A stretch of 64,000 bases of DNA from an uncultured Actinomycetota bacterium (GCA_963726615.1 CAVSCX010000003.1:292238-356237), one strand, 5' to 3'; numbered from the stretch's first letter, positions 36,693-59,751 are shown. The notes: generated by a model from the sequence alone, not told the origin. Numbers and translations are program-made.

Positions 36693-37358
36693 GTGAACGG
36701 ACGGGTGCTGGTCGTCGAGGACGACCACGGCCTGCGCGACGTGGTGGCCCGCGGGCTGCGCGAGGCCGGCTTCGAGGTGACGACGGCGAGCGACGGGACG
36801 GGGGCCCTGCGCACTGCGGGGGCCGGGCAGTTCGACGTCGTGGTGCTGGACATCGGCCTGCCCGATGCGGACGGCCGCGACGTCTGTCAGGCGATGCGCG
36901 CTGCCGGGACCAGGGCACCGGTGGTGTTCCTCACCGCCAAGGACGGCGTCACCGACCGCCTGTCGGGCTTCGCCGCCGGCGGGGACGACTACCTGGCCAA
37001 GCCGTTCCACCTCGCGGAGCTCGTCGCCCGGCTGCGGGTCGCCGTCCGCCGCGGCGGGGAGCTCGCCGGGAGCACCGTCGGCGACCTGCAGGTGGACCCG
37101 GCCCGCCACGACCTGTCCGGACCGGCCGGGTCCGTGTCGCTGTCGCCCACGGAGTTCCGGCTGCTGGCCCGGCTGATGGCTCAGCCCGGCAGCGTCACCC
37201 GGCGGCACGAGCTCGTCGCAGCCGCCTGGGCCCATGGTTCCGTCGTCGCCGACAACACCCTGGACCAGTACGTCGCGAAGCTGCGCCGCAAGCTGGTCCA
37301 GGCGGGCAGCGAGCAGTCCATCGACACTGTGCGCGGCGTGGGCTACCGGCTCACGTGA
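36693..37358 (+). CDS. OmpR-family response regulator
   Basis: GTG start. VLVVEDDHGLRD...VVVLDIGLPDADG...LTAKDG. Winged helix TVRGVGYRL. Confidence 0.85.
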   Translation: MNGRVLVVEDDHGLRDVVARGLREAGFEVTTASDGTGALRTAGAGQFDVVVLDIGLPDADGRDVCQAMRAAGTRAPVVFLTAKDGVTDRLSGFAAGGDDYLAKPFHLAELVARLRVAVRRGGELAGSTVGDLQVDPARHDLSGPAGSVSLSPTEFRLLARLMAQPGSVTRRHELVAAAWAHGSVVADNTLDQYVAKLRRKLVQAGSEQSIDTVRGVGYRLT

Positions 37359-38683
37359 GGCGGCCACGCGCTCTGCGCAACCGGCTTGCCCTGGTCGCGC
37401 TGCTGAGCACCGGCGCCTGGGTGCTCGTGCTGACCGCCGTCTTCAACCTGCTGCTCACCGCACAGCTGAGCCGGCAGGCGGATGACGTGCTGCGCACCAG
37501 GGCAGCTGCTGTGGCCTCGACGGTGCTCGTGGCCGACGACGGGTCGGTGTCCCTGCGCGAGCCACCCAACGACGAGGCGCTGGACGCGGGGGTGTGGGTG
37601 TTCGCCGGGAGCACCGTGCTGGAGCAGCCGCGCGCCTCACCGACAGCCACCGCACAAGCCAGCCGGATGGCCTTGCGCGGCGGCCCGAGCTTCCGGGACG
37701 TGGCCGGCTCACCCACGGTCCGCCTGCACGTGCGCCCGTTGCGGCACGACGGGGCAAGGGTCGGGGCGATCGTCGTCGAGACCAGCCTGGAGCCGTACCG
37801 CCGGCCGTCGCGCGCGGCACTGGTGGGCTCGGTCCTGCTGGCGATGCTGGTGCTGGTCGGCGCCTTCGCAGCCACCCGGCAGGTGGTGCGCCGAGCCCTG
37901 GTGCCGGTGTCGGAGATGGCCGAGCAGGCGGCGCGGTGGAGCGCGCACGACGTCGGGCAGCGCTTCGGCGACGACCCGCGACCGGACGAGCTCCGCGATC
38001 TGGCAGGCAGCCTGGACGCCGTCCTCGACCGGATCGGCTCGGTGCTGCGGCACGAGCAGCAGCTGGCTGCCGAGATCTCGCACGAGCTGCGCACCCCGCT
38101 CGCCGTGATCTCCACCGAGACCGAGCTGCTGCTGTCGGGCGAGCGCGACGAGGACGAGCGACGGCGCGCCCATCGCGCGATCGCCGACACCGCGGACCGG
38201 ATGTCCACGCTGCTCGACGCCCTGCTCGCCCAGGCCGCCCAGGACGTCACCGAGGCGCCGGGGAGCTGCGTGGTCGCGCCGGTCGCCGAGCAGGTGCTGG
38301 CGTCGACCGGACCCTCCCCCACGACGTACGACGTCCAGGTGCCGGCCGACCTGGAGGTCGGCGTGACGGGCGACGTCCTCGCCCGCATCCTCATGGCGCT
38401 GGTGGGCAACGCGATGCGATACGCCGACGGGCGGGTCACGGTGGACGCTGTCCGGGCCGGGCACGAGGTGCGCATCCGCGTGCGCGACGACGGGCCGGGG
38501 GTGCCCGCCGCGTTCCGGGCCGACGTCTTCGAGCCGGGCCGCCGCGCCGAACCGGGTGACGGGCACCCCGGCGCCGGCCTCGGGCTGGCGCTGGCCCGAC
38601 GGCTGGCCCGCGCCGCCGGCGGGGACATCACCCTCGACGGCGACGCGGGGTCCGAGTTCGTCGTCGTCCTGCCACCCGCCTGA
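37355..38683 (+). CDS. Sensor histidine kinase
   Basis: GTG start overlapping RR stop (GTGA). Two TM. H-box AAEISHELRTPLAV. HATPase_c (LVGNAMRYA, GAGLGLALARR). Confidence 0.8.
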   Translation: MRRPRALRNRLALVALLSTGAWVLVLTAVFNLLLTAQLSRQADDVLRTRAAAVASTVLVADDGSVSLREPPNDEALDAGVWVFAGSTVLEQPRASPTATAQASRMALRGGPSFRDVAGSPTVRLHVRPLRHDGARVGAIVVETSLEPYRRPSRAALVGSVLLAMLVLVGAFAATRQVVRRALVPVSEMAEQAARWSAHDVGQRFGDDPRPDELRDLAGSLDAVLDRIGSVLRHEQQLAAEISHELRTPLAVISTETELLLSGERDEDERRRAHRAIADTADRMSTLLDALLAQAAQDVTEAPGSCVVAPVAEQVLASTGPSPTTYDVQVPADLEVGVTGDVLARILMALVGNAMRYADGRVTVDAVRAGHEVRIRVRDDGPGVPAAFRADVFEPGRRAEPGDGHPGAGLGLALARRLARAAGGDITLDGDAGSEFVVVLPPA

Positions 38684-38703: not shown

Positions 38704-39501
38704 TCAGAGCGCGCGGACCTCCTCGACGTCGACCCTGGTCGCGGTCAGGTACGCGACCAGCACGAGGATCGCGCCGAGGAACGCGTAGCTCGTTCCCGTG
38801 GTGCCGAGGCCGATCCCGCCGTGCTTGTTCGACTGCGACATCAGGTCGCCGATCGAGGCACCAAGCGGGCGGGTGAGGATGTAGGCCAGCCAGAACGTCA
38901 GGACAGCGTTGGCCTTGAAGCCGTAGTGCGCGACGGCAACCAGGGCGATCGCCGCCGCGAACAGCAGCACCGACACGCCGTACCCGAGGGCGAACTGCTC
39001 GCCCACGAGGTCACCCGCGGCGGTGCCCAGGGCGAAGGTGAACAGGATCGCCAGCCAGTACCAGCTCTCGCGGCGCGACGTCACGATGCTGTGGATCGAC
39101 AGCGTGCCCTCGCTGCGGTACCAGAGGGCGAACGTGCCCGCGAGCAGCACGGCGAACACCGCCGTGCTCAGCGGCAACGGCACGCCGAAGCGGTCAGTGA
39201 GGTTGTCCGTGAGCAGCGTGCCGACCACGCTGATCACGACAACGGCCGCCCAGTAGACCGGTGCCACGTAGCGGCGGCTGCGGAACTGCCCGACCAGCAG
39301 GACCACGAGCAGCGCGGACGTCGCCACCGTCGTCCAGGTGAGGCCGAAGCCGAGCGTGTCGTTGAGGTAGTCGGCGGCCGTCTCGCCGACCGTCGTGGCC
39401 AGCACCTTGATCAGCCAGAAGTACAGCGTGACCTCGGGGACCTTGTTCAGCATCACCCGCACGGCGTCGCGGCGCGGGCTCGTCGTAGATGTCTCAGTCA
39501 T
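38704..39501 (-). CDS. Uncharacterised polytopic membrane protein (COG4705-like)
   Basis: Start at MTETSTTSP within the longer track ORF. ~7 TM. Confidence 0.55.
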   Translation of the reverse strand: MTETSTTSPRRDAVRVMLNKVPEVTLYFWLIKVLATTVGETAADYLNDTLGFGLTWTTVATSALLVVLLVGQFRSRRYVAPVYWAAVVVISVVGTLLTDNLTDRFGVPLPLSTAVFAVLLAGTFALWYRSEGTLSIHSIVTSRRESWYWLAILFTFALGTAAGDLVGEQFALGYGVSVLLFAAAIALVAVAHYGFKANAVLTFWLAYILTRPLGASIGDLMSQSNKHGGIGLGTTGTSYAFLGAILVLVAYLTATRVDVEEVRAL

Positions 39502-39579: not shown

Positions 39580-39960
39580 ATGGACGAGACATGGGACCTG
39601 TGGATCCGTGCGGTAGGGGCGACGGGGCTGTCGTTCGCGAGGGCGACTGTCGCCGCGGCGGCCGCCCGCGACCGGGTGCTGGTGCACGCCGCGCCGGAGC
39701 AGCTGGAGGTCGTGGTCCGGGACGGGAACGGCACCCTCGTCGCGGAGGGACGGGAGCTGGCGCGGGGCGAGCCCGGACCCATGACCTACCTGGTGCGGGA
39801 CGGGGACCAGATCCGGCTCGAGGACGGCTGGCCCACCGACGCCGACCTGGGTCGGCTGGTGATCCTGCCCGGCGGCGAGGCCGGTGTGCTCACCGCGTGG
39901 TGGCACGCGGAGGACCGGTCCGAGTGGCGCTGGTCGGTCGAGTTCGCCAACCACGTCTGA
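39580..39960 (+). CDS. Hypothetical protein (126 aa)
   Basis: Start at MDETWDLW. No recognised family. Divergent from the TauE gene. Confidence 0.45.
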   Translation: MDETWDLWIRAVGATGLSFARATVAAAAARDRVLVHAAPEQLEVVVRDGNGTLVAEGRELARGEPGPMTYLVRDGDQIRLEDGWPTDADLGRLVILPGGEAGVLTAWWHAEDRSEWRWSVEFANHV

Positions 39961-39988: not shown

Positions 39989-40768
39989 TCAGCTGCCGGC
40001 CCCCGGGTTGACCACCGCCTGCACGGCGACGAACGCGGCGACCAGCAGGACGAGCCCGGCGAACCCTCGACGCAGACGGTCCGCGGGCAGGCGGGTGGCC
40101 AGTCGCGCCGCGGCCAACGAGCCGGCGACCGCGGCACCGGTGAACACGGCGGCGAGGCCGTAGTCGACCTCCGCGCCGCCGACGTGCGCCGCGAACCCGG
40201 CGGCGGAGTTCACGGTCACCACGACCAGGGACGTGCCGACGGCGACCGCCATCGGCAGCCCCAGCAGCAGGACGAGTGCGGGGACCACGAGGAAGCCGCC
40301 CCCGACGCCGAACAGGCCGGTGAGCAGCCCGACGGCGACGCCCGACCCGATCGCCTTCGGCAGGCAGCCGCGCCAGTCCACCCGGCCGCCCGGCAGCGCG
40401 CAGTCCCCGCCGGCCTCCGGCTGCTCCCGGAGCATCCGGACAGCCGCCACGACCATCACCAGGGCGAAGCCGATGAGCACCATCCGGGGGTCCAGCGCCC
40501 GGTTCACCGCGGTCCCCGCGTAGGCGGCGGGGATACCAGCGGCACCCACGACCGCTGCGATGCGCCACTGGACCTGCCGCGCCCGGATCCGCGGGACGAC
40601 CGCAGCGGCGGCCGAGACCCCGACGACGAGCAACGACGTCGGCACCGCCGCCGACAGCGGCTGATCGGCGCCGTAGACCAGTGCCGGGACGGCGAGGATG
40701 CTGCCTCCGGCACCGAGCAGCCCGAGCAGGACCCCGATGGCCAGCCCGAGCGCGGCCGCGACAGCCAT
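39989..40768 (-). CDS. TauE/SafE (DUF81) sulfite/anion exporter family permease
   Basis: 259 aa. Two internal repeats each with GxGGG ([12 protein letters not shown] and [11 protein letters not shown]). ATGA overlap with upstream gene at 40768. Confidence 0.8.
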
Positions 40769-42153
40769 CAGCGGGCTGCGGCCGTCCTCGGCGCCTCGAG
40801 CCCGGCCTCCGCCGCCGCCGCGTAGTCCTCGTTCACGTGCACGACAGTCCGCCGGTCGACGTCGAGCATCGACGCGGCGATCGCGGCCCGGTACCCGGAG
40901 CCGCAGTACACCCACACCTCGCCGTCCGGCACCTCGGCCAACCGGTCCGGCAGCTCGTGGATGGGGATGTGCATCGACGCTTCGACATGTCCCGTGGCGC
41001 GCTCGTCGTGCCGTCGCGCGTCGAGCACGTGCACCTCGGCACTGTCGTCCTCCCCGAGACGGGCGGCGAGCCCGGCGAAGTCGGAGACGCGGTAGGTGCG
41101 CAGCGGACTTCCGGCGGCCATGGCCTCGACGTCGCCTACCGCGGCGCCCGCCAGCTCGTCGATACCGATGCGCACGAGCTCGCGCCGCGCATCGGCGACC
41201 TGCTCGGACGTCTCGCCGATGAGAGTGAGCGGGGCGCCCCACGGCACCAGCCATCCCACGTAGGTGACGAAGTTCGTACCCAGCTCGAAGTTCCGGCTGC
41301 CCGTCAGGTGACCGGCCGCGAACGCTGTCCGTTCGCGCAGGTCCACGACCCACTCTCCGGCCTCGATCCGTGAGCGCAGCTCGGCCGGGTCGACCGGCCG
41401 GGGGGCGCCGAGGTCGACCGGCTCCGGGCCGCGGTTGTTGGCCGGCCCCATGTGCGCGTAGTAGGCGGGGTAGGCGTCCAGCCCGGCGAGCAGCGTCTCG
41501 ACGTAGGTCTGCTCGTCCTGGGTGAGGGCCGGGTTCGTGGCACGCTGCTCCGCCACGGTGGAGTCGTCGCCTGAGGTCGGGGTGGCCGAGCAGAAGCTGC
41601 CGAACCCGTGGGTGGGCAGCACCTGGGCGTCGGACGGCAGGTCCGCAGCCAGCCGGCGCACCGACCGGTACTGCGCGCGGGTCAGGTCCACGGTGTGCTC
41701 CGGGCCGACGAGGTCCGTCCGGCCGGTGGAGCCGAACAGCATGGACCCGCCGGTCAGGACTGCCTGGACCGGGCCGTCCAGCACCGCGACGGCGTAGGCG
41801 ACGTGGTGGTGGGTGTGGCCCGGGGTGTGCAGCACCGACACCCGTAGGTCCCCCACCTCGAACGTGTCACCGTCGGCCACCGGCGTGTGCGGGAACTGTG
41901 CACCCATGTCGTGCGGCACGACGTAGGAAGCCCCGGCGACAGTCGCCAGCTCGAGGCCGCCGGTGACGTAGTCGTTGTGCCCGTGGGTCTCCGCGACGGC
42001 TGCGATGCGGACTCCCAGCGTCTGCGCCAGGTCCAGCACTCGGTCGATGTCGCGCTGCGGGTCGACGACAAGGGCGACGGTGCCGTCGGTGAGCAGGTAG
42101 CTGCGGTCACCGAGCGACGGTGTCTCGATCACGTGGTGGGTGAGTCCGGACAT
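40768..42153 (-). CDS. Persulfide dioxygenase (ETHE1-like MBL fold) fused to C-terminal rhodanese domain (CstB-like)
   Basis: Start at MSGLTHHV. MBL metal motif AETHGHNDYVTG plus HTPGHT. C-terminal rhodanese with active-site CGSGYRA. Confidence 0.8.
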   Translation of the reverse strand: MSGLTHHVIETPSLGDRSYLLTDGTVALVVDPQRDIDRVLDLAQTLGVRIAAVAETHGHNDYVTGGLELATVAGASYVVPHDMGAQFPHTPVADGDTFEVGDLRVSVLHTPGHTHHHVAYAVAVLDGPVQAVLTGGSMLFGSTGRTDLVGPEHTVDLTRAQYRSVRRLAADLPSDAQVLPTHGFGSFCSATPTSGDDSTVAEQRATNPALTQDEQTYVETLLAGLDAYPAYYAHMGPANNRGPEPVDLGAPRPVDPAELRSRIEAGEWVVDLRERTAFAAGHLTGSRNFELGTNFVTYVGWLVPWGAPLTLIGETSEQVADARRELVRIGIDELAGAAVGDVEAMAAGSPLRTYRVSDFAGLAARLGEDDSAEVHVLDARRHDERATGHVEASMHIPIHELPDRLAEVPDGEVWVYCGSGYRAAIAASMLDVDRRTVVHVNEDYAAAAEAGLEAPRTAAAR

Positions 42154-42169
42154 CTCGCTGCCTCCCGTC

Positions 42170-42517
42170 TCAGGCCGGCTCCGAGCCGGCGACAACCGGG
42201 TTGCCCGCCTTCATCCAGCCGCCGGTGCCCCCGGCGACCGAACGCGCGTCCGCACCGGCCTGGCCGAGCAGCCCGGCGCCGGCCTTGCTCCGGTTCCCCG
42301 AGGCGCAGACGACGAACACCGGGGCTCCGGCTGCCTCCCGTACCAGGTCGTCGGTGTGACGTCCGAGCTGGTCGAGCGGGATGTTGCGCGCGCCAGGGAC
42401 GTGGCCGCCGACGTACTCGTCCGGCTCGCGAACGTCCACGGTCAGCGCGCCCGCTGCATGGGCGGTGGCGAAGTCGGCGAGCTCGGTCTCACGGACGGTG
42501 TTGCCTTGGCTGGACAT
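42170..42517 (-). CDS. Single-domain rhodanese-like sulfurtransferase
   Basis: 115 aa. GAGGAG RBS. Active-site loop CASGNRS. Confidence 0.75.
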   Translation of the reverse strand: MSSQGNTVRETELADFATAHAAGALTVDVREPDEYVGGHVPGARNIPLDQLGRHTDDLVREAAGAPVFVVCASGNRSKAGAGLLGQAGADARSVAGGTGGWMKAGNPVVAGSEPA

Positions 42518-42529
42518 CAACACTCCTCT

Positions 42530-42545
42530 ATACGGGTGGGGGTAT
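42530..42545. promoter_or_regulatory. Operator-like box 1: ATACGGGTGGGGGTAT (ATAC-N8-GTAT), in the 5'UTR of the rhodanese operon
   Basis: Exact reverse complement of box 2. Sits immediately upstream of the rhodanese RBS. Confidence 0.5.
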
Positions 42546-42655
42546 CGTTCGAACCTATCAAGGCGCCGGGACCGGCCCTCATTCCGGTCTGCCCCGGTCA
42601 ACCTCCGACATACCCCGGCGGGGGCGTCTCGCACTCCTGCTTGCGGTATGGCAAC

Positions 42656-42671
42656 ATACCCCCACCCGTAT
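42656..42671. promoter_or_regulatory. Operator-like box 2: ATACCCCCACCCGTAT, 24 nt upstream of the MMPL GTG start
   Basis: Exact reverse complement of box 1, 110 nt away. Same ATAC-N8-GTAT architecture. Confidence 0.5.
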
Positions 42672-42694: not shown

Positions 42695-44869
42695 GTGACG
42701 ACTGCCCCGACCGCCCGCGACACGAGCGTCAGCGGCCCCAAGAACACCAGGGACGACGGTAATGCCCGGCTGGGCCCGCTCGGCCGCCTCGGTGTGTGGA
42801 CCGCCACCCGTGCCCGGACTGTCTTCGTCGTGTGGCTGCTGATCGTCGTCTCCCTGGGGGCCTTCGCGCCGAAGGTGGAGCACGCGCTCGCCGGCGCCGG
42901 CTGGGAGGCGTCGGGGTCGGAGTCGGTCGCCGTGCGGGACATCGCGCACCGCGAGTTCGGCGGGATGTCGAGCGCCGCTCTCCAGGTCGTCGTGCACACC
43001 GACTCGGGCACCGTGACCACCGGTCCCGGCCGGGTCGCGGTCGACCGGGCCGTGGCACTGCTGCGCGCCGACGATCGGGTCTCCACCGTCCAAGCGCCGC
43101 GGCCCGGCACGTCGCTGTCCCCCGACGGACGCACTGCACTGATCCGCGGCGGCGCAGCCAGTGCCAACACCAACGAGATGGTCCGCGCGGCGGACGACCT
43201 CAAGGGACCGGTGCGCGACCTGAGCGGTGACGACGTGACTGTCGCGCTCACGGGGTCGTCCGCGCTGTGGAGCGACTTCAACGCCGCCAACCTCGACGCG
43301 ATGATGAAGAGCGAGCTCATCAGCTGGCCGGTCACACTGGTCATCCTCGTGCTCGCGTTCGGGTCCCTGGTGGCCGCCGGCCTGCCGCTGATGCTGACGA
43401 TCACCGGGCTGGTCGCCGCAGCCGGATCCCTCTACCTCGGCACCCTGCTCGGTGACATCAGCATCTGGGCGATGAACTTCGCGCTGATGTTCGCGCTCGC
43501 GCTGGGCATCGACTACGCACTGTTCGTGGTCGTCCGGTACCGAGCCGCGCGGTTCGGAGACCACCAGAACACCCGGTCAGCCGTTGGCGAGACCATGGAC
43601 ACGGCCGGCAAGGCGGTCCTCTTCTCCGGCGTCACCGTCCTGGTCTCCCTGTCGGCAGTGATGCTGGTGCCGTCGCCGGCCTTCCGCTCGATGGCCCTCG
43701 GCATCATGCTCGCCGTCGTCTTCGTCCTGGCCGCGACGCTGACCCTGCTCCCGGCCGTCCTCGGGAAGCTCGGTCACCGGGTGGACGCCCTCGCACTGCC
43801 CTGGGTGCACGCCGGTGAGCACCGGTCGCTCCGCTTCGAGCGGTGGGCCCAGCGGTTGTGGCGTCGGCCGGTCGGCTACGGACTGCTCGCCCTCGTGGCC
43901 CTCGCTGTCCTCGCAGCCCCGGTGCTGGGACTACGGACCGGGATGCCCTCGATCAAGGTCGTTCCGGAGACCGACTCCAGCCGGGTCGGCTACGCCGCCG
44001 TCCAGGACGCGTTCGGCCCGGGCGCACCAGGCACGCTGCAGGTCGTCGTCCCCCAGGACCGGGCCGGCCGGGCCGCGGCCGTGCTCGCCGACGATCCGGG
44101 AGTGGTCATGGTCATGCCGCCCGCTGCCGGCATTGGGAAGAAGGTCCTGCTGGCCGCCGTACCCGACGACGGCCCGTCCACCCGCGCCCTGGGCACGACG
44201 ATCGACCGGCTCCGTGCCGACCTGCCGTCGGAGGCCCTCGTCGGAGGCCCCTCGGCCGAGAACCACGACCTCGAGCGGCTGCTGGCCGACAAGACACCAC
44301 TGGTCATCGGCGTCGTGCTGGCGCTCGGCTTCCTGCTGCTGCTGGTCGCCCTGCAGGCGCCGCTGGTGGCGGCTCTGGGCACCCTGACGAACCTGCTCGC
44401 CACCGGTGCCGCCTTCGGCGTGGCGAAGCTGATCTTCCAGGACGGGCACGGATCGGGCCTGCTCGGGTTCGAGCCGCAGGGCTTCCTCGACGCCTGGGCT
44501 CCGGTGTTCTTCTTCGCCATGATCTTCGCCATCGGCATGGACTACACCGTCTTCCTGCTGGCGTCCGCGAAGGAGCACTGGGAGCGGTCGAACGACGCAC
44601 GCGAGGCGATGGTGGGCGGGCTGGCGCACTCCGGCCGGGTCATCTTCGCCGCTGCCGGCGTGATGGTCGCTGTCTTCTTCACCTTCGCCCTGTCCGGCCC
44701 GCTCCCCCCGAAGGAGATGGGTGTCGTCCTCGGCGTCGCCGTGCTCCTCGACGCAGCGCTGGTCCGTCTCCTGCTGCTGCCGGTGCTCCTGCGACTCAGC
44801 GGCCGAGCCGCGTGGGCTTCGCCCTCCTGGTTGCGCCGGCTGCTGCCGCGGGTGCGGTTCAGCCACTGA
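42695..44869 (+). CDS. MMPL-family (RND superfamily) membrane transporter
   Basis: 724 aa from GTG preceded by GAGGA. Two 6-TM bundles each followed by an extracytoplasmic domain. Confidence 0.8.
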   Translation: MTTAPTARDTSVSGPKNTRDDGNARLGPLGRLGVWTATRARTVFVVWLLIVVSLGAFAPKVEHALAGAGWEASGSESVAVRDIAHREFGGMSSAALQVVVHTDSGTVTTGPGRVAVDRAVALLRADDRVSTVQAPRPGTSLSPDGRTALIRGGAASANTNEMVRAADDLKGPVRDLSGDDVTVALTGSSALWSDFNAANLDAMMKSELISWPVTLVILVLAFGSLVAAGLPLMLTITGLVAAAGSLYLGTLLGDISIWAMNFALMFALALGIDYALFVVVRYRAARFGDHQNTRSAVGETMDTAGKAVLFSGVTVLVSLSAVMLVPSPAFRSMALGIMLAVVFVLAATLTLLPAVLGKLGHRVDALALPWVHAGEHRSLRFERWAQRLWRRPVGYGLLALVALAVLAAPVLGLRTGMPSIKVVPETDSSRVGYAAVQDAFGPGAPGTLQVVVPQDRAGRAAAVLADDPGVVMVMPPAAGIGKKVLLAAVPDDGPSTRALGTTIDRLRADLPSEALVGGPSAENHDLERLLADKTPLVIGVVLALGFLLLLVALQAPLVAALGTLTNLLATGAAFGVAKLIFQDGHGSGLLGFEPQGFLDAWAPVFFFAMIFAIGMDYTVFLLASAKEHWERSNDAREAMVGGLAHSGRVIFAAAGVMVAVFFTFALSGPLPPKEMGVVLGVAVLLDAALVRLLLLPVLLRLSGRAAWASPSWLRRLLPRVRFSH

Positions 44870-44876
44870 AAGGCGC

Positions 44877-44892
44877 ATACCCTGGCGTGTAT
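44877..44892. promoter_or_regulatory. Operator-like box 3: ATACCCTGGCGTGTAT, 19 nt upstream of the CstR-like gene
   Basis: Same ATAC-N8-GTAT frame as boxes 1 and 2, with a less G/C-run core. Confidence 0.4.
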
Positions 44893-44910: not shown

Positions 44911-45171
44911 GTGCAGGTGGACCTCGAGACCGTCGGACCGGTCGTGAACCGGCTCAAGCGCGCCCAGGGGCAGCTGGCCGGGGTGCTGCGGATGCTGGAG
45001 GAGGAGCGGGACTGCGCGGACGTCGTGACCCAGCTCGCCGCGGTGTCCCGTGCGCTGGACAAGGCAGGGTTCGCCCTCATCGCGGCCGGCCTCGAGCAAT
45101 GTCTCCGTGCCGGCGACGACGGTGCGCTGGACCGCGAGAAGCTCGAGAAGGTCTTCATGTCGCTGGCCTGA
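44911..45171 (+). CDS. CsoR/RcnR-family (DUF156) repressor, CstR-like (two Cys, no His)
   Basis: 86 aa from GTG. VNRLKRAQGQLAGVLRMLEEERDCADVVTQLAAVSRALDKAGFALIAAGLEQC. Cys residues 29 apart, as in S. aureus CstR. No His at the Cu-ligand position. Confidence 0.7.
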   Translation: MQVDLETVGPVVNRLKRAQGQLAGVLRMLEEERDCADVVTQLAAVSRALDKAGFALIAAGLEQCLRAGDDGALDREKLEKVFMSLA

Positions 45172-45245: not shown

Positions 45246-45857
45246 TCAGGCGGACCCGGTCAGGGCAGGCAGCCGTCGCCGGCGGCGCACCGCCACTGCG
45301 CTGAGCGCGAGCAGGACGACGGCGAGCGCAGCTGCACCGGCCAGCACCCGACCGGCGACGGGCTGCGGACCGTCGTCGCCGAGCGGGCCCGGGTCGAACG
45401 AGGCGCTGAGTCCCAGTCCGCGGACGGGACCGGCCTCGGCGACGTGGACCTCGCCGGTGGCCGTCCCGACTGTGGGCCCCAACGTCGCCACCCGCAGGAC
45501 CCACCGGCCGGCCGGCAGGTGGATCCGTGCGGTGTAGAGACCGGGCGCGGACCGGTCCGGCATCAGGCGCACGGAGCGCTCGCCCTGGGGGCCGGACAGG
45601 GCCGCCAGCACGAACTCGTCCACGACCGGCTCGCGGTCGCCGGCGTAGACGACGAGGGCCTGGACGACGGCGGCCGATGCGTCACCGGCCACCGCCAGCC
45701 TGATCTCGGAGGTGCCGCTGTGGGCGTCGGCCGGCGCCGACGCCAGGCCGGTCAGGGCTGCGACGAGGCATAGCAGCGCGACGTACCGACGGACCGCCCT
45801 GGGCGCGCGGGCGCGAAGCGGCTTTCCGGCAGGCGCCGCCTTCGCTGTCCCGACCAT
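45246..45857 (-). CDS. Secreted, C-terminally TM-anchored hypothetical protein with predicted mature N-terminal His
   Basis: Start at MVGTAKAAP... Signal ...LTGLASAPADA|HSGTSE. C-terminal TM plus RRRRR stop-transfer. Confidence 0.45.
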   Translation of the reverse strand: MVGTAKAAPAGKPLRARAPRAVRRYVALLCLVAALTGLASAPADAHSGTSEIRLAVAGDASAAVVQALVVYAGDREPVVDEFVLAALSGPQGERSVRLMPDRSAPGLYTARIHLPAGRWVLRVATLGPTVGTATGEVHVAEAGPVRGLGLSASFDPGPLGDDGPQPVAGRVLAGAAALAVVLLALSAVAVRRRRRLPALTGSA

Positions 45858-45991
45858 GACGACGACGCTAGGCAGTTCCGACCCCGCGCACGCCGGCCGC
45901 GTCCGGACTGTCATCGACCTGTCATGCGGCCCCGACCGCTGCTGGCGTCACCGCGGACGACCACCCGGGGGACTGACCCCGGGCTGTCCGC

Positions 45992-46669
45992 TCACGACGC
46001 GCCGGACTCCAGGGCTCCCTCGAGGCCGTCGAGCAGGAGGTCGAGACCGAACGCGAACTCCTTGCCGTAGTCGTAGCCCGGCTTCAGGACGTGCTCGAAG
46101 GTGAGCTCGGCGAGGTGCGGGTACTCGTCGACCGGGAACCGCGCGAGGATTGCCTGCGCGAGCTCGGCGATCTGCTCCGGGGACTCGAACGGCAGGGCCC
46201 GATCGGACATCGCGAAGCCGTAGATGTAGCTGTCGAGGGCGGCGTACGCGTGCGCGACGAGCGCGATGGGGAAGCCGGCGCGCCGGAGGCAGGCGATGAC
46301 GTCGTCGTGGTGCCGGAGGTTGGCGGGCCCGGGTGCGCTGCGGGACTCCATCAGCCCGTTGGCCCACCGGTGGCGGCCGAGGACCTCGCGGACGGACACG
46401 CCGCGGGCTCGCATCGCGGTCTTCCAGTCGACGTCGGACGGGATCTCGATCTCGGCGAAGACGAGGTCGATCATGCCGTCGAGGAGGTCGTCGCGGTTCG
46501 CGACGTGGTGGTACAACGACATCGCCTCCACCCCGAGCGCGTTGCCCAGCTTGCGCATGCTGAGCCACTCGAGACCGTGCTCGTCGGCAAGCGCCAGCCC
46601 CGTACGCAGCACGCGCTCCCTGGACAGCGGGGTCCGCGGTTCGGGTCGGACGTCGGACGACGCGGACAT
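45992..46669 (-). CDS. TetR/AcrR-family transcriptional regulator
   Basis: Start at MSASSDV. N-terminal HTH ([27 protein letters not shown]). Confidence 0.75.
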
Positions 46670-46754
46670 CGTCGGCTCCTCTCGCGGCATGCCCCCGGGG
46701 TTCCGGTCGGCTGTCGCGCCCATCTTACGTTGTAAGGCACGGGTGCCGCGCCGT

Positions 46755-47006
46755 TCAGCGGCGGTTGAGCAGCCAGACGCGGACGCGGTGCAGCTGCGGC
46801 ATCACGCCGTAGATGACGACGGGGACGGCGATCGTGGCGAGGACGAGGGTCCGGACGACGACCGACAGGTCCTGCAGGTACGGACCCAGTGACACGTTGA
46901 GCACGGTCAGGGTCGGGAAGACGGCGACCCAGATCATCAGGGCCAGCTGGTGCTTGGTCGGCGGGGTCATCCTGGCCGGCGGGACGGCGACGGGCTGGTT
47001 CGACAT
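46755..47006 (-). CDS. Small membrane protein (83 aa, 2 TM)
   Basis: Immediately upstream of the TetR gene, same strand. Confidence 0.45.
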
Positions 47007-47087: not shown

Positions 47088-48020
47088 CTAGCGCGCGAGT
47101 TCGCCGCGGTGGCGGACGGCTCGGTCGACGTCCTCCTCGACGAGGTCGGCGTTGATGGCGATGGCCGCCGTCGAGCCTTCACCGGCAGCGGTGATGACCT
47201 GGGCCCGCGGATTCGCGAGGTTCCCGGCGACCCAGACGCCGGTCACAGTGGTGCGTCCGGTCGGGTCTGTCTCCGGCCAGCCGGCGCTGTCGACGGCGCA
47301 CCCGAGGTCCGTCAGCAGGTCGTTGTGGGGGACGAAGCTCGGGCGGACGAACACTGCCGCCCGGGGAACGGCCCGGCCGTCCTCGAGCTCGAGGCCGCGG
47401 AGCACGTCGTCGACGACGGCGACACGGGCCACGGCGCCGTCGACGACACCGATGCCCCGGGCGGCAAGCTGCTCCCGCTGGTCGGCGGTCGATGGGTCGG
47501 TGTGGGTGAACAAGATGACGTCGGAGGACCACTGCCGCACCAGCTGCGCATGGGCCATCGCCTCCGGCGTCCCACCGAGCACGGCGATCGGCTGGTCACG
47601 CACCTCGTACCCGTGGCAGTACGGGCAGTGCAGGACGTCCCTGCCCCACCGCTCCCGCAGTCCGGGGACGTCCGGGATCTCGTCTCGTAGGCCGGTGGCG
47701 ACCAGCAGGCGGCGGGCCATCAGCTGCGACCCGTCTCGCAGGCGCACCTGGAAGCCGGGCCGGCCCACCACGTCGACCGCGACCACCCGGCCGTCGAGAA
47801 GGCGCCCGCCGTAGCCGGCGACCTCCTCCCGGCCGGCGGACAGCAGGTCCCTGGGAGACATGCCGTCCCTGGAGAGGAAGCCCTGCATGTGGGCGGCCGG
47901 GGCGTTGCGCGGCTCACCCGCATCGACAACCGTGACGGTGCGCCGCGCCCGGGTCAGCACGAGTGCCGCCGACAGCCCGGCGGCGCCGCCGCCGATGATC
48001 ACCACGTCGTTGTCGTCCAT
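47088..48020 (-). CDS. NAD(P)/FAD-dependent oxidoreductase (thioredoxin-reductase-like, CPYC motif)
   Basis: Start at MDDNDVVIIGGGAAGLSAAL (GxGxxG). HCPYCHGYE redox-active site. Confidence 0.75.
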   Translation of the reverse strand: MDDNDVVIIGGGAAGLSAALVLTRARRTVTVVDAGEPRNAPAAHMQGFLSRDGMSPRDLLSAGREEVAGYGGRLLDGRVVAVDVVGRPGFQVRLRDGSQLMARRLLVATGLRDEIPDVPGLRERWGRDVLHCPYCHGYEVRDQPIAVLGGTPEAMAHAQLVRQWSSDVILFTHTDPSTADQREQLAARGIGVVDGAVARVAVVDDVLRGLELEDGRAVPRAAVFVRPSFVPHNDLLTDLGCAVDSAGWPETDPTGRTTVTGVWVAGNLANPRAQVITAAGEGSTAAIAINADLVEEDVDRAVRHRGELAR

Positions 48021-48098: not shown

Positions 48099-48698
48099 AT
48101 GGACTCCGCTACCGCCATGGCCGCCGCGCTCGAGCAGGTCGGGCCGCGCATCAAGCGGATCCGCTCCCAGCGGGGCATCACGCTGACCGCACTCGCCGCG
48201 ACGACCGGCATCTCCATCAGCACCTTGTCACGCCTCGAGACCGGGCAGCGGCGCCCGAGCCTGGAGCTGCTGCTGCCGCTGGCCCAGGCCTACCGCGTGC
48301 CCCTCGACGACCTCGTCGGGGCGCCGGAGGTCGGCGACCCGCGGGTCCGGCCCAAGCCGCGGCGCGTCAACGGCCGTACCGTCCTGCCGCTGACCGGCCA
48401 GCCCGGAGGCATGCAGGCCTGGAAGATCCTCGTCCCCGCGTCCCAGACCGAGCCGCAGCTGAAGGCGCACGAGGGGTACGAGTGGCTCTACGTTCTCGCC
48501 GGTCGGATGCGCCTCGTCCTCGGTGACCACGACCTCGCGCTCGGCGCCGGCGAGGTGGCCGAGTTCGACACCCGGGTGCCGCACTGGTTCGGAAGCACGG
48601 GTAAGGGCCCCGCGGAGATCTTGAGCCTCTTCGGGCCGCAGGGCGAGCGGTTGCACGTCCGGGCGAAGTCCAGACGGGACGACACCGGTCAACCATGA
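48099..48698 (+). CDS. XRE-family HTH regulator with C-terminal cupin domain
   Basis: HTH IKRIRSQRGITLTALAATTGISISTLSRLETGQRRPSL. Cupin GYEWLYVLAGRMRL. Divergent from the oxidoreductase. Confidence 0.75.
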   Translation: MDSATAMAAALEQVGPRIKRIRSQRGITLTALAATTGISISTLSRLETGQRRPSLELLLPLAQAYRVPLDDLVGAPEVGDPRVRPKPRRVNGRTVLPLTGQPGGMQAWKILVPASQTEPQLKAHEGYEWLYVLAGRMRLVLGDHDLALGAGEVAEFDTRVPHWFGSTGKGPAEILSLFGPQGERLHVRAKSRRDDTGQP

Positions 48699-58632: not shown

Positions 58633-59751
58633 TCAGATGAGCAGGTCGGCCGGCAGGGCCTGGGCTCGTGACGACGCGAGCTCGTCGCGGATGTGGTCGG
58701 CGAGCCAGGCGGCGTCGTCCTTCACGTATCCGAGCAGCGCGGAGCCGCGGGTGTGCAGCCAGGGCTGCCCCACGACACTGAGCCCTGGGACCGGGCTGAT
58801 GCCGCGCTCGTTCGCGACCGTGCCGTCGACGACGGCGCCGGGGATGTCGAGCCACGAGTAGTCGGTGCGGAACCCGGTGGCCCAGACGACTGCCGTGACA
58901 TGGGTGACGCTGCCGTCTGCGAACATCGCCCGGGTCAGGTCGACGTCGTCCAGGCGGGGCCGGACCCGGACGCCGAGCCGGGTGAGGTCGCGCCAGCGGG
59001 TGCCGATGACCAGGTCGCCCTTCTTCTGCGCGCGCCGCGCGAGGCGGGAGTCCGCGGTCTTGGCGAGCAGCCCGAGCCGGGACAGCCACCAGAACAGGTC
59101 CCGGCCGAAGACGCGCTGGGGCAGCATCGGAGACCGGGTGCCCACGGCGACGGTGACGGGCCGGGAGGCGGCGAGCTCGCGGGCGATCTGCAGCCCGGAG
59201 TTGCCGGCGCCGACGACCAGCACCGGCCCGTCCGGCAGCTGGCCCGGGTTGCGGTAGGCCGACGAGTGCAGCTGGACGACGTCGGCCGCCAGGTTGTGGG
59301 ACAGGGTCGGGACGACCGGGGTCTGGAAGGGGCCGGTCGCGACGACGACCTGCCGGGCGGTGATGAGGCCGGTCGAGGTGTCGGCGTGGAAAAGGTCGCC
59401 GGCCCTCGACAGGCGGATGGCGCGCGTGTTGAGGCGGACCGGAAGCTCGAACGCTGCCGCGTACCTGCGCAGGTAGTCGGCGACCTGGTCCTTGCTCGGG
59501 TAGGTCCCGGCGGGGGCGGGGAACGGCATGCCCGGCAGCGCGTCGTACTCGGCGGGGGTGAACAGCCGCAGCGAGTCCCACCGGTTGCGCCACACGTGCC
59601 CGACCTCCGGGCCGGCGTCGATGAGCACGAACGAGCGGATGCCCTGCTGGCGCAGGTGCCAGCCGATGGCGAGGCCGGCCTGGCCGGCGCCGACGACGAG
59701 CACGTCGACGTGCTCCGCGAGGGCGGGATCCTGCTGGTCGGGGGTCTGCAT
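58633..59751 (-). CDS. Flavin-containing monooxygenase / NAD(P)-binding oxidoreductase (CzcO-like)
   Basis: Two dinucleotide motifs VLVVGAGQAGL and VLVVGAGNSGLQIA. Confidence 0.75.
   Translation of the reverse strand: MQTPDQQDPALAEHVDVLVVGAGQAGLAIGWHLRQQGIRSFVLIDAGPEVGHVWRNRWDSLRLFTPAEYDALPGMPFPAPAGTYPSKDQVADYLRRYAAAFELPVRLNTRAIRLSRAGDLFHADTSTGLITARQVVVATGPFQTPVVPTLSHNLAADVVQLHSSAYRNPGQLPDGPVLVVGAGNSGLQIARELAASRPVTVAVGTRSPMLPQRVFGRDLFWWLSRLGLLAKTADSRLARRAQKKGDLVIGTRWRDLTRLGVRVRPRLDDVDLTRAMFADGSVTHVTAVVWATGFRTDYSWLDIPGAVVDGTVANERGISPVPGLSVVGQPWLHTRGSALLGYVKDDAAWLADHIRDELASSRAQALPADLLI

Follow-up and report, generated by a model that had tools for sequence, protein, structure and literature searches.

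A putative CstR-controlled sulfane-sulfur homeostasis module with a Gly-type CstB-like enzyme and a linked MMPL transporter gene in an uncultured Actinomycetota bacterium

Gene layout and operators of the cluster

The DNA analysed here, referred to as the window, is a stretch of 64,000 nucleotides (64 kb; G+C content about 74%) from an uncultured Actinomycetota bacterium (GCA_963726615.1 CAVSCX010000003.1:292238-356237), and all positions are counted from its first letter. Between 39,989 and 42,517 three genes are closely linked on the minus strand, encoding a single-domain rhodanese, a fusion of a persulfide dioxygenase (PDO) with rhodanese domains that resembles CstB of Staphylococcus aureus, and an anion exporter of the TauE/SafE (TSUP) family. 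A preliminary description, made from the sequence alone, had presented them as a compact three-gene operon for the detoxification of sulfide and persulfide. Pfam and motif searches show that this description was too narrow: the rhd-pdo-tauE operon faces an mmpL-cstR gene pair, and the whole is a five-gene divergon with three candidate operators.

The effector operon begins with the rhodanese gene (42170..42517, minus strand, 115 aa). This gene starts with ATG at 42517, stops with TGA at 42172-42170 and has a Shine-Dalgarno sequence, GAGGAG, 4 nt 5' of the start codon. The gap of 16 nt that follows (42153/42170) is exactly as first described and contains the sequence GGGAGG, 7 nt 5' of the ATG at 42153, with which the fusion gene begins (40768..42153, minus strand, 461 aa, TGA at 40770-40768). 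The tauE gene (39989..40768, minus strand, 259 aa) starts with ATG at 40768-40766. An ATGA overlap had been reported for this second junction, which is incorrect; it reads cgcTGATGgct, where stop and start codon share the single base 40768 (1-nt overlap). Divergent from the rhodanese operon lies a gene call for an MMPL-family RND transporter (42695..44869, plus strand, 724 aa, GTG start; PF03176, 6.6e-70), followed on the same strand by the gene of a CstR-type repressor of the CsoR family (44911..45171, plus strand, 86 aa; PF02583, 1.9e-22). The three minus-strand genes are real at these coordinates, since the reading of the open reading frames agrees with independent gene calls, taken from the source contig (ERZ25039476 contig_2619, locus L001 in the numbering of the loci compared below). 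A gene calling of the whole window based on the G+C content of third codon positions proved too strict, as it missed tauE, and was dropped.

The identities first given to the small rhodanese and to TauE were borne out. PF00581 matches the small protein with 1.6e-15, and its sole cysteine, Cys71, is located in the loop CASGNRS. The exporter matches PF01925 with 168 bits (3.6e-49; cut-off 32.6) from position 2 to 235 of the 237 profile positions, and is therefore a full-length member of the family. A pair of cysteines in its central cytoplasmic loop, Cys123 and Cys135 (G[DT]AC...x11...NWRxC), is present in 44 of 51 aligned sequences (50 orthologues and the window protein) and might be a redox or sulfur-handling site.

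The best solved relative of the repressor is CstR of Streptococcus pneumoniae (7MQ1-3, 7e-14), and Cys35 and Cys64 align with both sensing cysteines of this protein (7MQ1). The repressor carries the x-C-x-C signature, in which Gly, four residues before the second cysteine, replaces the His that is a Cu(I) ligand in CsoR. This is the pattern of persulfide sensors without a copper response in cells, and the actinomycete cluster of these proteins includes CsoR/CstR of Streptomyces coelicolor (Fakhoury et al., PMC8643695). The motifs CEDVVTQLA, LQQCM and LFLSLA* match those of the S. coelicolor protein, ScCsoR, as decoded from primers. Release from the DNA by persulfidation or polysulfide bridging of the cysteine pair, as opposed to Cu(I) binding, was shown for CstR of S. 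aureus and S. pneumoniae (PMC8643695) and for ScCsoR, which binds ATACCn6GGTAT and is released by polysulfide via Cys37/Cys66 (PMC7533328). By analogy, we infer that the window repressor is a persulfide-released sensor.

With the ScCsoR consensus (ATACCN6GGTAT; PMC7533328), a search of the whole 64 kb at no more than one mismatch yielded three matches where 0.03 were expected, all of them inside the cluster. Candidate operator 1 (42530..42545) reads ATACCCCCACCCGTAT on the minus strand and ends 12 nt 5' of the rhodanese ATG; candidate operator 2 (42656..42671) has ATACCCCCACCCGTAT on the plus strand and ends 23 nt 5' of the MMPL GTG. Both are inverted copies, each oriented toward its gene, and they form the only long invariant blocks of the spacer in an alignment with the two loci L002 and L003, where the fusion protein shares about 77% identity with that of the window. 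Candidate operator 3 (44877..44892, ATACCCTGGCGTGTAT) lies between the MMPL stop at 44869 and the repressor start at 44911, and has equivalents in the corresponding position of L002 and L003; it is a candidate site of autoregulation. Judged by their sequence, these are GC-rich pseudo-palindromic operators as expected for CstR (ATACC-N6-GGTAT type). Of 81 loci, comprising 80 related loci and L001, 58 have operator-like sites upstream of pdo, rhd, tauE, csoR or mmpL. Between the full operators 1 and 2 there is also a half-operator-like GGGGTAT element at 42572-42590 (minus strand, GCCGGGGTAT); it is kept in L002 and L003, the L002 copy even qualifying as a full operator at one mismatch.

The CstB-like enzyme and its iron site

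The fusion protein contains two stretches matching PF00581 (3e-15 for the whole protein). It aligns end to end with solved proteins in which a metallo-beta-lactamase (MBL) domain is joined to rhodaneses, namely 3tp9 from Alicyclobacillus (5e-63) and 3r2u from S. aureus (4e-41). An AlphaFold2 model of the protein (mean predicted local distance difference test, pLDDT, 82.5; predicted template modelling score, pTM, 0.84) was compared with solved structures by Foldseek, which gave a template modelling (TM) score of 0.85 to 3tp9 over all three domains and of 0.86 to 3r2u (target-normalised). The next structural matches are PDO-rhodanese fusions and ETHE1 proteins. Entry 3TP9, from Alicyclobacillus acidocaldarius and without an assigned function, is both the best sequence match (residues 24-431) and the best structural match (34% identity); it keeps the Asp of the SGD motif and a Cys-Gly loop, whereas the window enzyme has neither.

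The protein has the three-domain architecture of type III enzymes, with an MBL-fold PDO domain, a pseudo-rhodanese and a catalytic C-terminal rhodanese. Its only cysteines are Cys188 and Cys417, so the middle rhodanese-like domain is Cys-less, as in CstB. The CstB-like architecture of the preliminary description therefore stands, and its label "ETHE1-type" is imprecise. ETHE1 and other type I PDOs (human 4CHL, Arabidopsis 2GCU) and the Burkholderia PRF (5VE3-5) share with the window enzyme the N-terminal MBL fold (TM 0.82-0.86, target-normalised) and the first two His ligands of the iron, but at only 24-28% identity and with weaker sequence matches (1e-14 to 1e-18). ETHE1 is a single domain with a glutathione-persulfide pocket, while the window protein is multidomain. 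Canonical PDOs moreover possess a Thr-Asp-water network, with Thr at the position of Gln13 in CstB (PMC12934615); in the window protein Asp16 replaces the Thr, Gly replaces the Asp, and the network is absent.

In the structures of CstB, Fe(II) is bound by H56, H119 and D145, and H58 forms a hydrogen bond to the bound water. C201-G202 is situated on a mobile loop and becomes S-sulfonated, and C408 of the rhodanese, together with R370 and R413, finishes the formation of thiosulfate (PMC12934615). Residue numbers were taken from this study and checked against the 3r2u alignment. In the window protein H57, H59 and H113 are present, Cys188 corresponds to C201, Cys417 to C408, Arg422 to R413 and Arg380 approximately to R370. 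The loop cysteine and the Cys/Arg set of the rhodanese are thus as in CstB, and Cys188, Cys417, Arg422 and Arg380 are invariant in the homologue surveys. Three positions differ: Asp145 of CstB is Gly136, Q13 is Asp16, and Cys-Ser replaces the C201-G202 "glutathione mimic". Across the homologues the loop cysteine is followed by Ser or Ala rather than Gly.

The first of these differences concerns the iron itself. The facial triad of two His and one Asp (H56/H119/D145 in CstB, H79/H135/D154 in ETHE1) is incomplete in the window protein, where H57 and H113 are present and the Asp position is occupied by Gly136, in the context TGGSMLFGSTGRTDL as against SGDFIFVGDIGRPDL. The fusion protein has thousands of homologues, of which the best 120 (66-100% identity) belong mostly to Actinomycetota. 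Gly is found at the ligand position in all of these 120, in the centre genes of all 81 loci, and in most of the best 150 representatives from a library clustered at 50% identity. A sequencing error or a pseudogene as source of the exchange is rejected, as every close homologue has the same residue. Among the representatives, Gly136 occurs together with Asp (58), Asn (40) or His (5) at the position of Q13, whereas those with Asp136 carry His or Gln there (8 of 8). As candidates for iron binding in the Gly-type enzymes, the sequences offer two possibilities, a 3-His site (H57, H59, H113) or a ligand contributed from position 16. In the searchable literature nothing was found on iron binding in Gly-type enzymes, nor on a persulfide dioxygenase with a 3-His site.

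The preliminary description had made its assignment dependent on the metal-binding residues of ETHE1. They are lost in part, as the third iron ligand (ETHE1 Asp154, CstB Asp145) is Gly136, but this does not refute the function, because a characterised PDO of S. coelicolor, ScPDO, falls in the same Gly-type clade. ScPDO was compared through motifs decoded from published primers. The peptides THVHNDY (from a primer for rapid amplification of cDNA ends), TGGSLL (from the spacer of a single-guide RNA), SLGNRSYL, PAYYA and VHLPVHEI are all diagnostic of the family, and the window protein has THGHNDY, TGGSML and SLGDRSYL at equivalent places; the position of a further decoded peptide, HTPHHTSY, is uncertain. 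These motifs assign ScPDO to the clade of the window enzyme. At position 16 the two proteins differ, with Asp in the window protein and Asn in ScPDO.

A second actinobacterial family keeps all hallmarks of CstB: HFHADF, TGD and the Cys-Gly loop. In many loci of Mycobacterium and Mycolicibacterium two PDO-rhodanese paralogues lie close together (L029, L042, L051, L053, L058, L060, L061 and L066, also L012, L037 and L041). The first eight of these show the order canonical paralogue, tauE and Gly type (HxHNDY, TGGS, Cys-Ser loop), alongside a divergent CsoR-like gene and three to four operators. This arrangement suggests that canonical and Gly-type paralogues have different roles.

Related systems, proposed circuit and alternatives

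The closest described system is the ScCsoR/ScPDO circuit of S. coelicolor, comprising ScPDO (SCO0618, PDO and rhodanese), TauE (SCO0619), ScCsoR (SCO0620) and Rhod (SCO0621) (Lu et al. 2020, PMC7533328). The recombinant ScPDO consumes O2 with glutathione persulfide (GSSH; Vmax 1.19 umol/min/mg, Km 94 uM), with sulfite reported as product; deletion of Scpdo increases the cellular sulfane sulfur, whose level influences antibiotic production, and pdo and tauE are co-transcribed (PMC7533328). Common to this circuit and the window are the four protein types, the operator consensus, the two-Cys pattern of the repressor, the adjacent and co-oriented pdo and tauE genes, the enzyme clade and the absence of a sulfide:quinone oxidoreductase (SQR). 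The gene order differs, as rhd-pdo-tauE form one operon in the window while S. coelicolor has pdo-tauE and a rhod gene divergent from csoR. The MMPL gene, placed between operon and repressor gene and sharing the operator region, is a feature of the window that the S. coelicolor circuit as described does not include.

The preliminary description had pointed to the cst operon of S. aureus (tauE, cstR, cstA, cstB, sqr). The likeness is there, in the CsoR-family persulfide sensor, TauE and the three-domain build of CstB, but this operon alone is not the nearest parallel. It includes sqr and the multidomain cstA, neither of which was found in the 64 kb, where the 115-aa rhodanese is the sole separate sulfurtransferase. 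The product of CstB is thiosulfate, in contrast to the sulfite reported for ScPDO. On sequence grounds, the module is orthologous to SCO0618-0621 and analogous to S. aureus cst, and it is ordinary apart from the iron ligand and the MMPL transporter.

The statement that no SQR is present agrees with our results. A scan of all long open reading frames of the window for Rossmann motifs, which an atypical SQR could escape, found no SQR-like frame in the 64 kb. Only two frames have a Rossmann motif for flavin adenine dinucleotide, one resembling thioredoxin reductases (47088-48020) and one resembling flavin-containing monooxygenases (FMO-like, 58636-59751); neither is an SQR, as was already noted at first for the former. 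The circuit would handle persulfides generated inside the cell and so needs no SQR.

The 80 loci used for comparison stem from Geodermatophilaceae, Pseudonocardia, Mycobacterium/Mycolicibacterium, Rhodococcus, Gordonia, Actinomadura and many metagenome-assembled genomes. A TauE orthologue is encoded within 7 kb of the fusion gene in 47 of them, a CsoR-family gene is present in 49, and 40 have both. A separate small rhodanese gene stands beside the fusion gene in 34 loci, and 11 contain an MMPL orthologue. Family membership, the linkage to pdo in 47 loci and the co-transcription in S. coelicolor together argue for an export of sulfite or a related oxyanion by TauE.

With L001 counted, 12 of the 81 loci have the MMPL gene, the orthologues being 60-84% identical; the best 120 matches to the protein have 71-100% identity. 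In Blastococcus (L014, L016, L021, L033) its place is behind CsoR-Rhd-PDO, in the same orientation, and TauE comes next in three cases. Seven further orthologues, sampled on contig size and diversity alone, all adjoin a gene for a CsoR-family or ArsR-type regulator, and six of the seven are also near DUF302, TauE, rhodanese, OsmC or DsrE/DsrC genes. Those MMPL genes with a CsoR-like regulator are preceded by operator sites, often of the same ATACC...CCCGTAT variant, which is found upstream of the orthologues in L024, L032, L035, L082 and L087. The association of the MMPL gene with these regulators and with sulfur-handling genes is solid. In the searchable literature there was no paper linking MmpL proteins with persulfide dioxygenases. 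This conserved linkage, and the clade-wide replacement of Asp by Gly with covarying Asp or Asn, are absent from that literature.

Some further observations were made on this orthogroup, which was seen at the window, at L082-L088 and at L014, L016, L021, L024, L026, L032 and L033. Locus L082 (contig_4920, likewise from ERZ25039476) represents a second genome with the order MMPL-CsoRlike-DUF302-TauE and no adjacent PDO gene. Operator variants lie at its called MMPL start, one ending at the first base and one just inside, so this start may be mis-set. L035 (Streptomyces sp. NPDC126510) and L036 (Nocardioides sp. NPDC126508) have the order MMPL-TauE-CsoR-PDO, as have L026 and L032 from Rhodococcus, and their match statistics, gene coordinates and operator sites are identical in the matched regions. 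This identity points to one deposit being mislabelled or cross-contaminated, or else to transfer of the region very recently.

We interpret the three minus-strand genes as the effector arm of a CstR-controlled module for the homeostasis of sulfane sulfur (persulfide and polysulfide), to which we assign a probability of about 0.8. At low levels of reactive sulfur the repressor would sit on the three operators and shut rhd-pdo-tauE, mmpL and its own gene, as was shown for ScCsoR and as orthology and operator conservation lead us to expect. Persulfide or polysulfide would modify Cys35 and its partner Cys64, and the repressor would leave the DNA, in line with ScCsoR and CstR. Cys71 of the small rhodanese would then take sulfane sulfur from low-molecular-weight persulfides, probably those of mycothiol, CoA or Cys, and pass it to the fusion protein. 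There, the Fe- and O2-dependent PDO domain would oxidise the persulfide, with the sulfur probably held on the mobile Cys188 loop and Cys417 taking part; the activity is attributed by proxy of ScPDO, a member of the same clade reported to be active with GSSH. The product may be either the sulfite that was reported for ScPDO or the thiosulfate that CstB forms, and TauE would export the oxyanion, as its family and the co-transcription indicate. The co-regulated MMPL pump, more speculatively, may remove another compound related to sulfur stress. The flow from persulfide over oxidised sulfur to export that was first proposed is consistent with the gene content, with either oxyanion as product.

A number of results weigh against this interpretation. 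Among the domain families named at the outset PF00581 and PF01925 were recovered, while PF00753, the MBL family, reached 20.0 bits in the fusion protein, below the cut-off of 22.7. The MBL assignment is nevertheless secure, because it rests on the full-length matches to 3tp9 and 3r2u and on the structural TM score of 0.85. The AlphaFold2 model has its lowest confidence at residues 140-147, just after Gly136, and in the Cys188 loop. With no carboxylate ligand for the iron, metal binding and dioxygenase chemistry of the clade are not explained by the textbook site, and the canonical and Gly-type paralogues of mycobacteria may not share one job. For activity in the clade the evidence is a single study, which used GSSH, a persulfide of a non-native thiol, and measured a modest 1.19 U/mg, compared to 111 U/mg reported for a PDO of Acidithiobacillus. 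A genome survey of 2017 by the group of the 2020 paper gives a pdo count of zero for S. coelicolor M145 (Table 2, PMC5702731). Finally, a sigma-70 scan recognised no promoter; the same scan gave one terminator-like site, which is weak and lies inside the MMPL gene.

Several of these points would also fit a fusion protein of the Gly136 type that is not a persulfide dioxygenase, but a glyoxalase II-like hydrolase acting on a thiosulfonate, polysulfide or thioester, or a sulfur-carrier scaffold. True dioxygenation would then be left to the canonical Asp-containing paralogue, where present. The exchange of Asp for Gly is invariant in the clade, both types occur in tandem in one operon in at least eight Mycobacterium/Mycolicibacterium loci, which suggests that they are non-redundant, the sole activity measured is low, and the S. 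coelicolor protein was not counted as a PDO in the phylogenetic screen of 2017. Furthermore, the MBL fold supports many hydrolases, and relatives of glyoxalase II are among the matches. Against this stands ScPDO, which has the same substitution and was reported to use O2 with GSSH, to form sulfite and to lower sulfane sulfur in vivo. The window and most loci have no canonical paralogue in their flanks, so that the Gly type would be left as the only enzyme for the pathway. Conservation extends to both His ligands, H59, the loop cysteine and the Cys/Arg residues of the rhodanese, all of which CstB needs, and structurally the protein is closest to PDO-rhodanese fusions and not to hydrolases. We therefore hold a non-dioxygenase role to be unlikely.

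The cluster could instead serve sulfur acquisition, with TauE importing sulfite, thiosulfate or a sulfonate and the rhodaneses and the MBL protein processing thiosulfate or persulfide for assimilation. Rhodaneses work in thiosulfate assimilation too, and TSUP/TauE proteins are annotated by family only, the sequence not giving the direction of transport. A CstR-type repressor released by persulfide, however, points to induction by an excess of sulfane sulfur and not by starvation, and deletion of the orthologous pdo raises cellular sulfane sulfur. Genes of the cys type or for sulfate assimilation were not noted among the open reading frames examined between about 36.3 and 48.7 kb, the remaining window not being annotated. 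An acquisition role is accordingly very improbable.

Least credible is a copper-stress regulon of MMPL, TauE and rhodanese genes under a copper-sensing CsoR, for which speak the Pfam family name "metal-sensitive transcriptional repressor", a best NCBIfam match to RicR that lies far below its cut-off, the resemblance of the operator to CsoR/RicR sites and a secreted-type protein with a predicted mature N-terminal His encoded just downstream (45246-45914), and which we reject since Gly takes the place of the Cu(I)-ligand His (x-C-x-C, as in persulfide sensors), sulfur enzymes are encoded alongside, CopA and CopZ were not found among the neighbouring genes examined, and the orthologue ScCsoR responds to polysulfide.

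Beyond the sulfane-sulfur homeostasis module as such, we tentatively consider a joint reading of its two unusual features, which is possible but should not be taken as probable. One part is a remodelled 2-His-1-carboxylate site in a clade of CstB-like enzymes that is very large and has mainly actinobacterial members, Gly being constant at the ligand position and Asp or Asn having arisen at the second-sphere position (Q13 in CstB, Thr in ETHE1). The other is a dedicated MMPL pump, which would regularly belong to actinobacterial reactive-sulfur regulons under sensors of the CstR or ArsR type. The remodelled site would imply either a relocated carboxylate or carboxamide ligand or a 3-His site of the cysteine dioxygenase type, and the tandem paralogues of mycobacteria would then have different substrates or products. 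What the pump extrudes may be a hydrophobic form of sulfur (zero-valent sulfur, for example, or an organic polysulfide) or a lipid damaged by sulfur.

Neighbouring genes and implications

Several genes flank the cluster. The gene at 45246-45914 (minus strand, 222 aa), convergent to the repressor gene, encodes the secreted-type protein mentioned above, which has no match in Pfam or NCBIfam. Its signal-peptide-like N-terminus (...ADA|HSGT) predicts His as first mature residue, and a membrane anchor is found at the C-terminus; this layout is reminiscent of histidine-brace copper-binding proteins. As it has no counterpart in the other loci, the gene is probably outside the module. It is followed by genes for a TetR regulator (45992-46723), an 83-aa membrane protein (46755-47006, precomputed match Y2318_C), the thioredoxin-reductase-like flavoprotein (47088-48020, minus strand) and, divergent from the latter, an XRE-cupin regulator (48099-48698, plus strand). 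These four form a separate small gene group that is not conserved with the sulfur cluster. On the other side, downstream of tauE and convergent to it, a DUF7712 gene is located (39580-39960, plus strand), next to a gene for a DUF347 membrane protein (38704-39501, minus strand); of the relatives, only the two closest (L002 and L003) likewise have these genes near the cluster. Further on lies a two-component system on the plus strand, with response regulator (36693-37358) and histidine kinase (37355-38683).

Our results above all confirm that the CstR/PDO/TauE circuit for sulfane sulfur known from S. coelicolor is widespread in Actinomycetota, uncultured soil lineages included. The phylogenetic screen of 2017 apparently did not recognise the Gly-type clade, and hence the distribution of PDOs in Actinobacteria may have been undercounted. 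The findings are of use for annotation, as relatives of these enzymes are now named "MBL fold metallo-hydrolase", "hydroxyacylglutathione hydrolase" or "rhodanese-like domain-containing protein". If the carboxylate-less enzymes are truly dioxygenases, the active-site rules for spotting PDOs in genomes need revision. An MMPL pump wired to persulfide sensors would, if true, be a new output of bacterial homeostasis of H2S and reactive sulfur and an export route absent from current models, in lineages that include mycobacteria, rhodococci and antibiotic producers.

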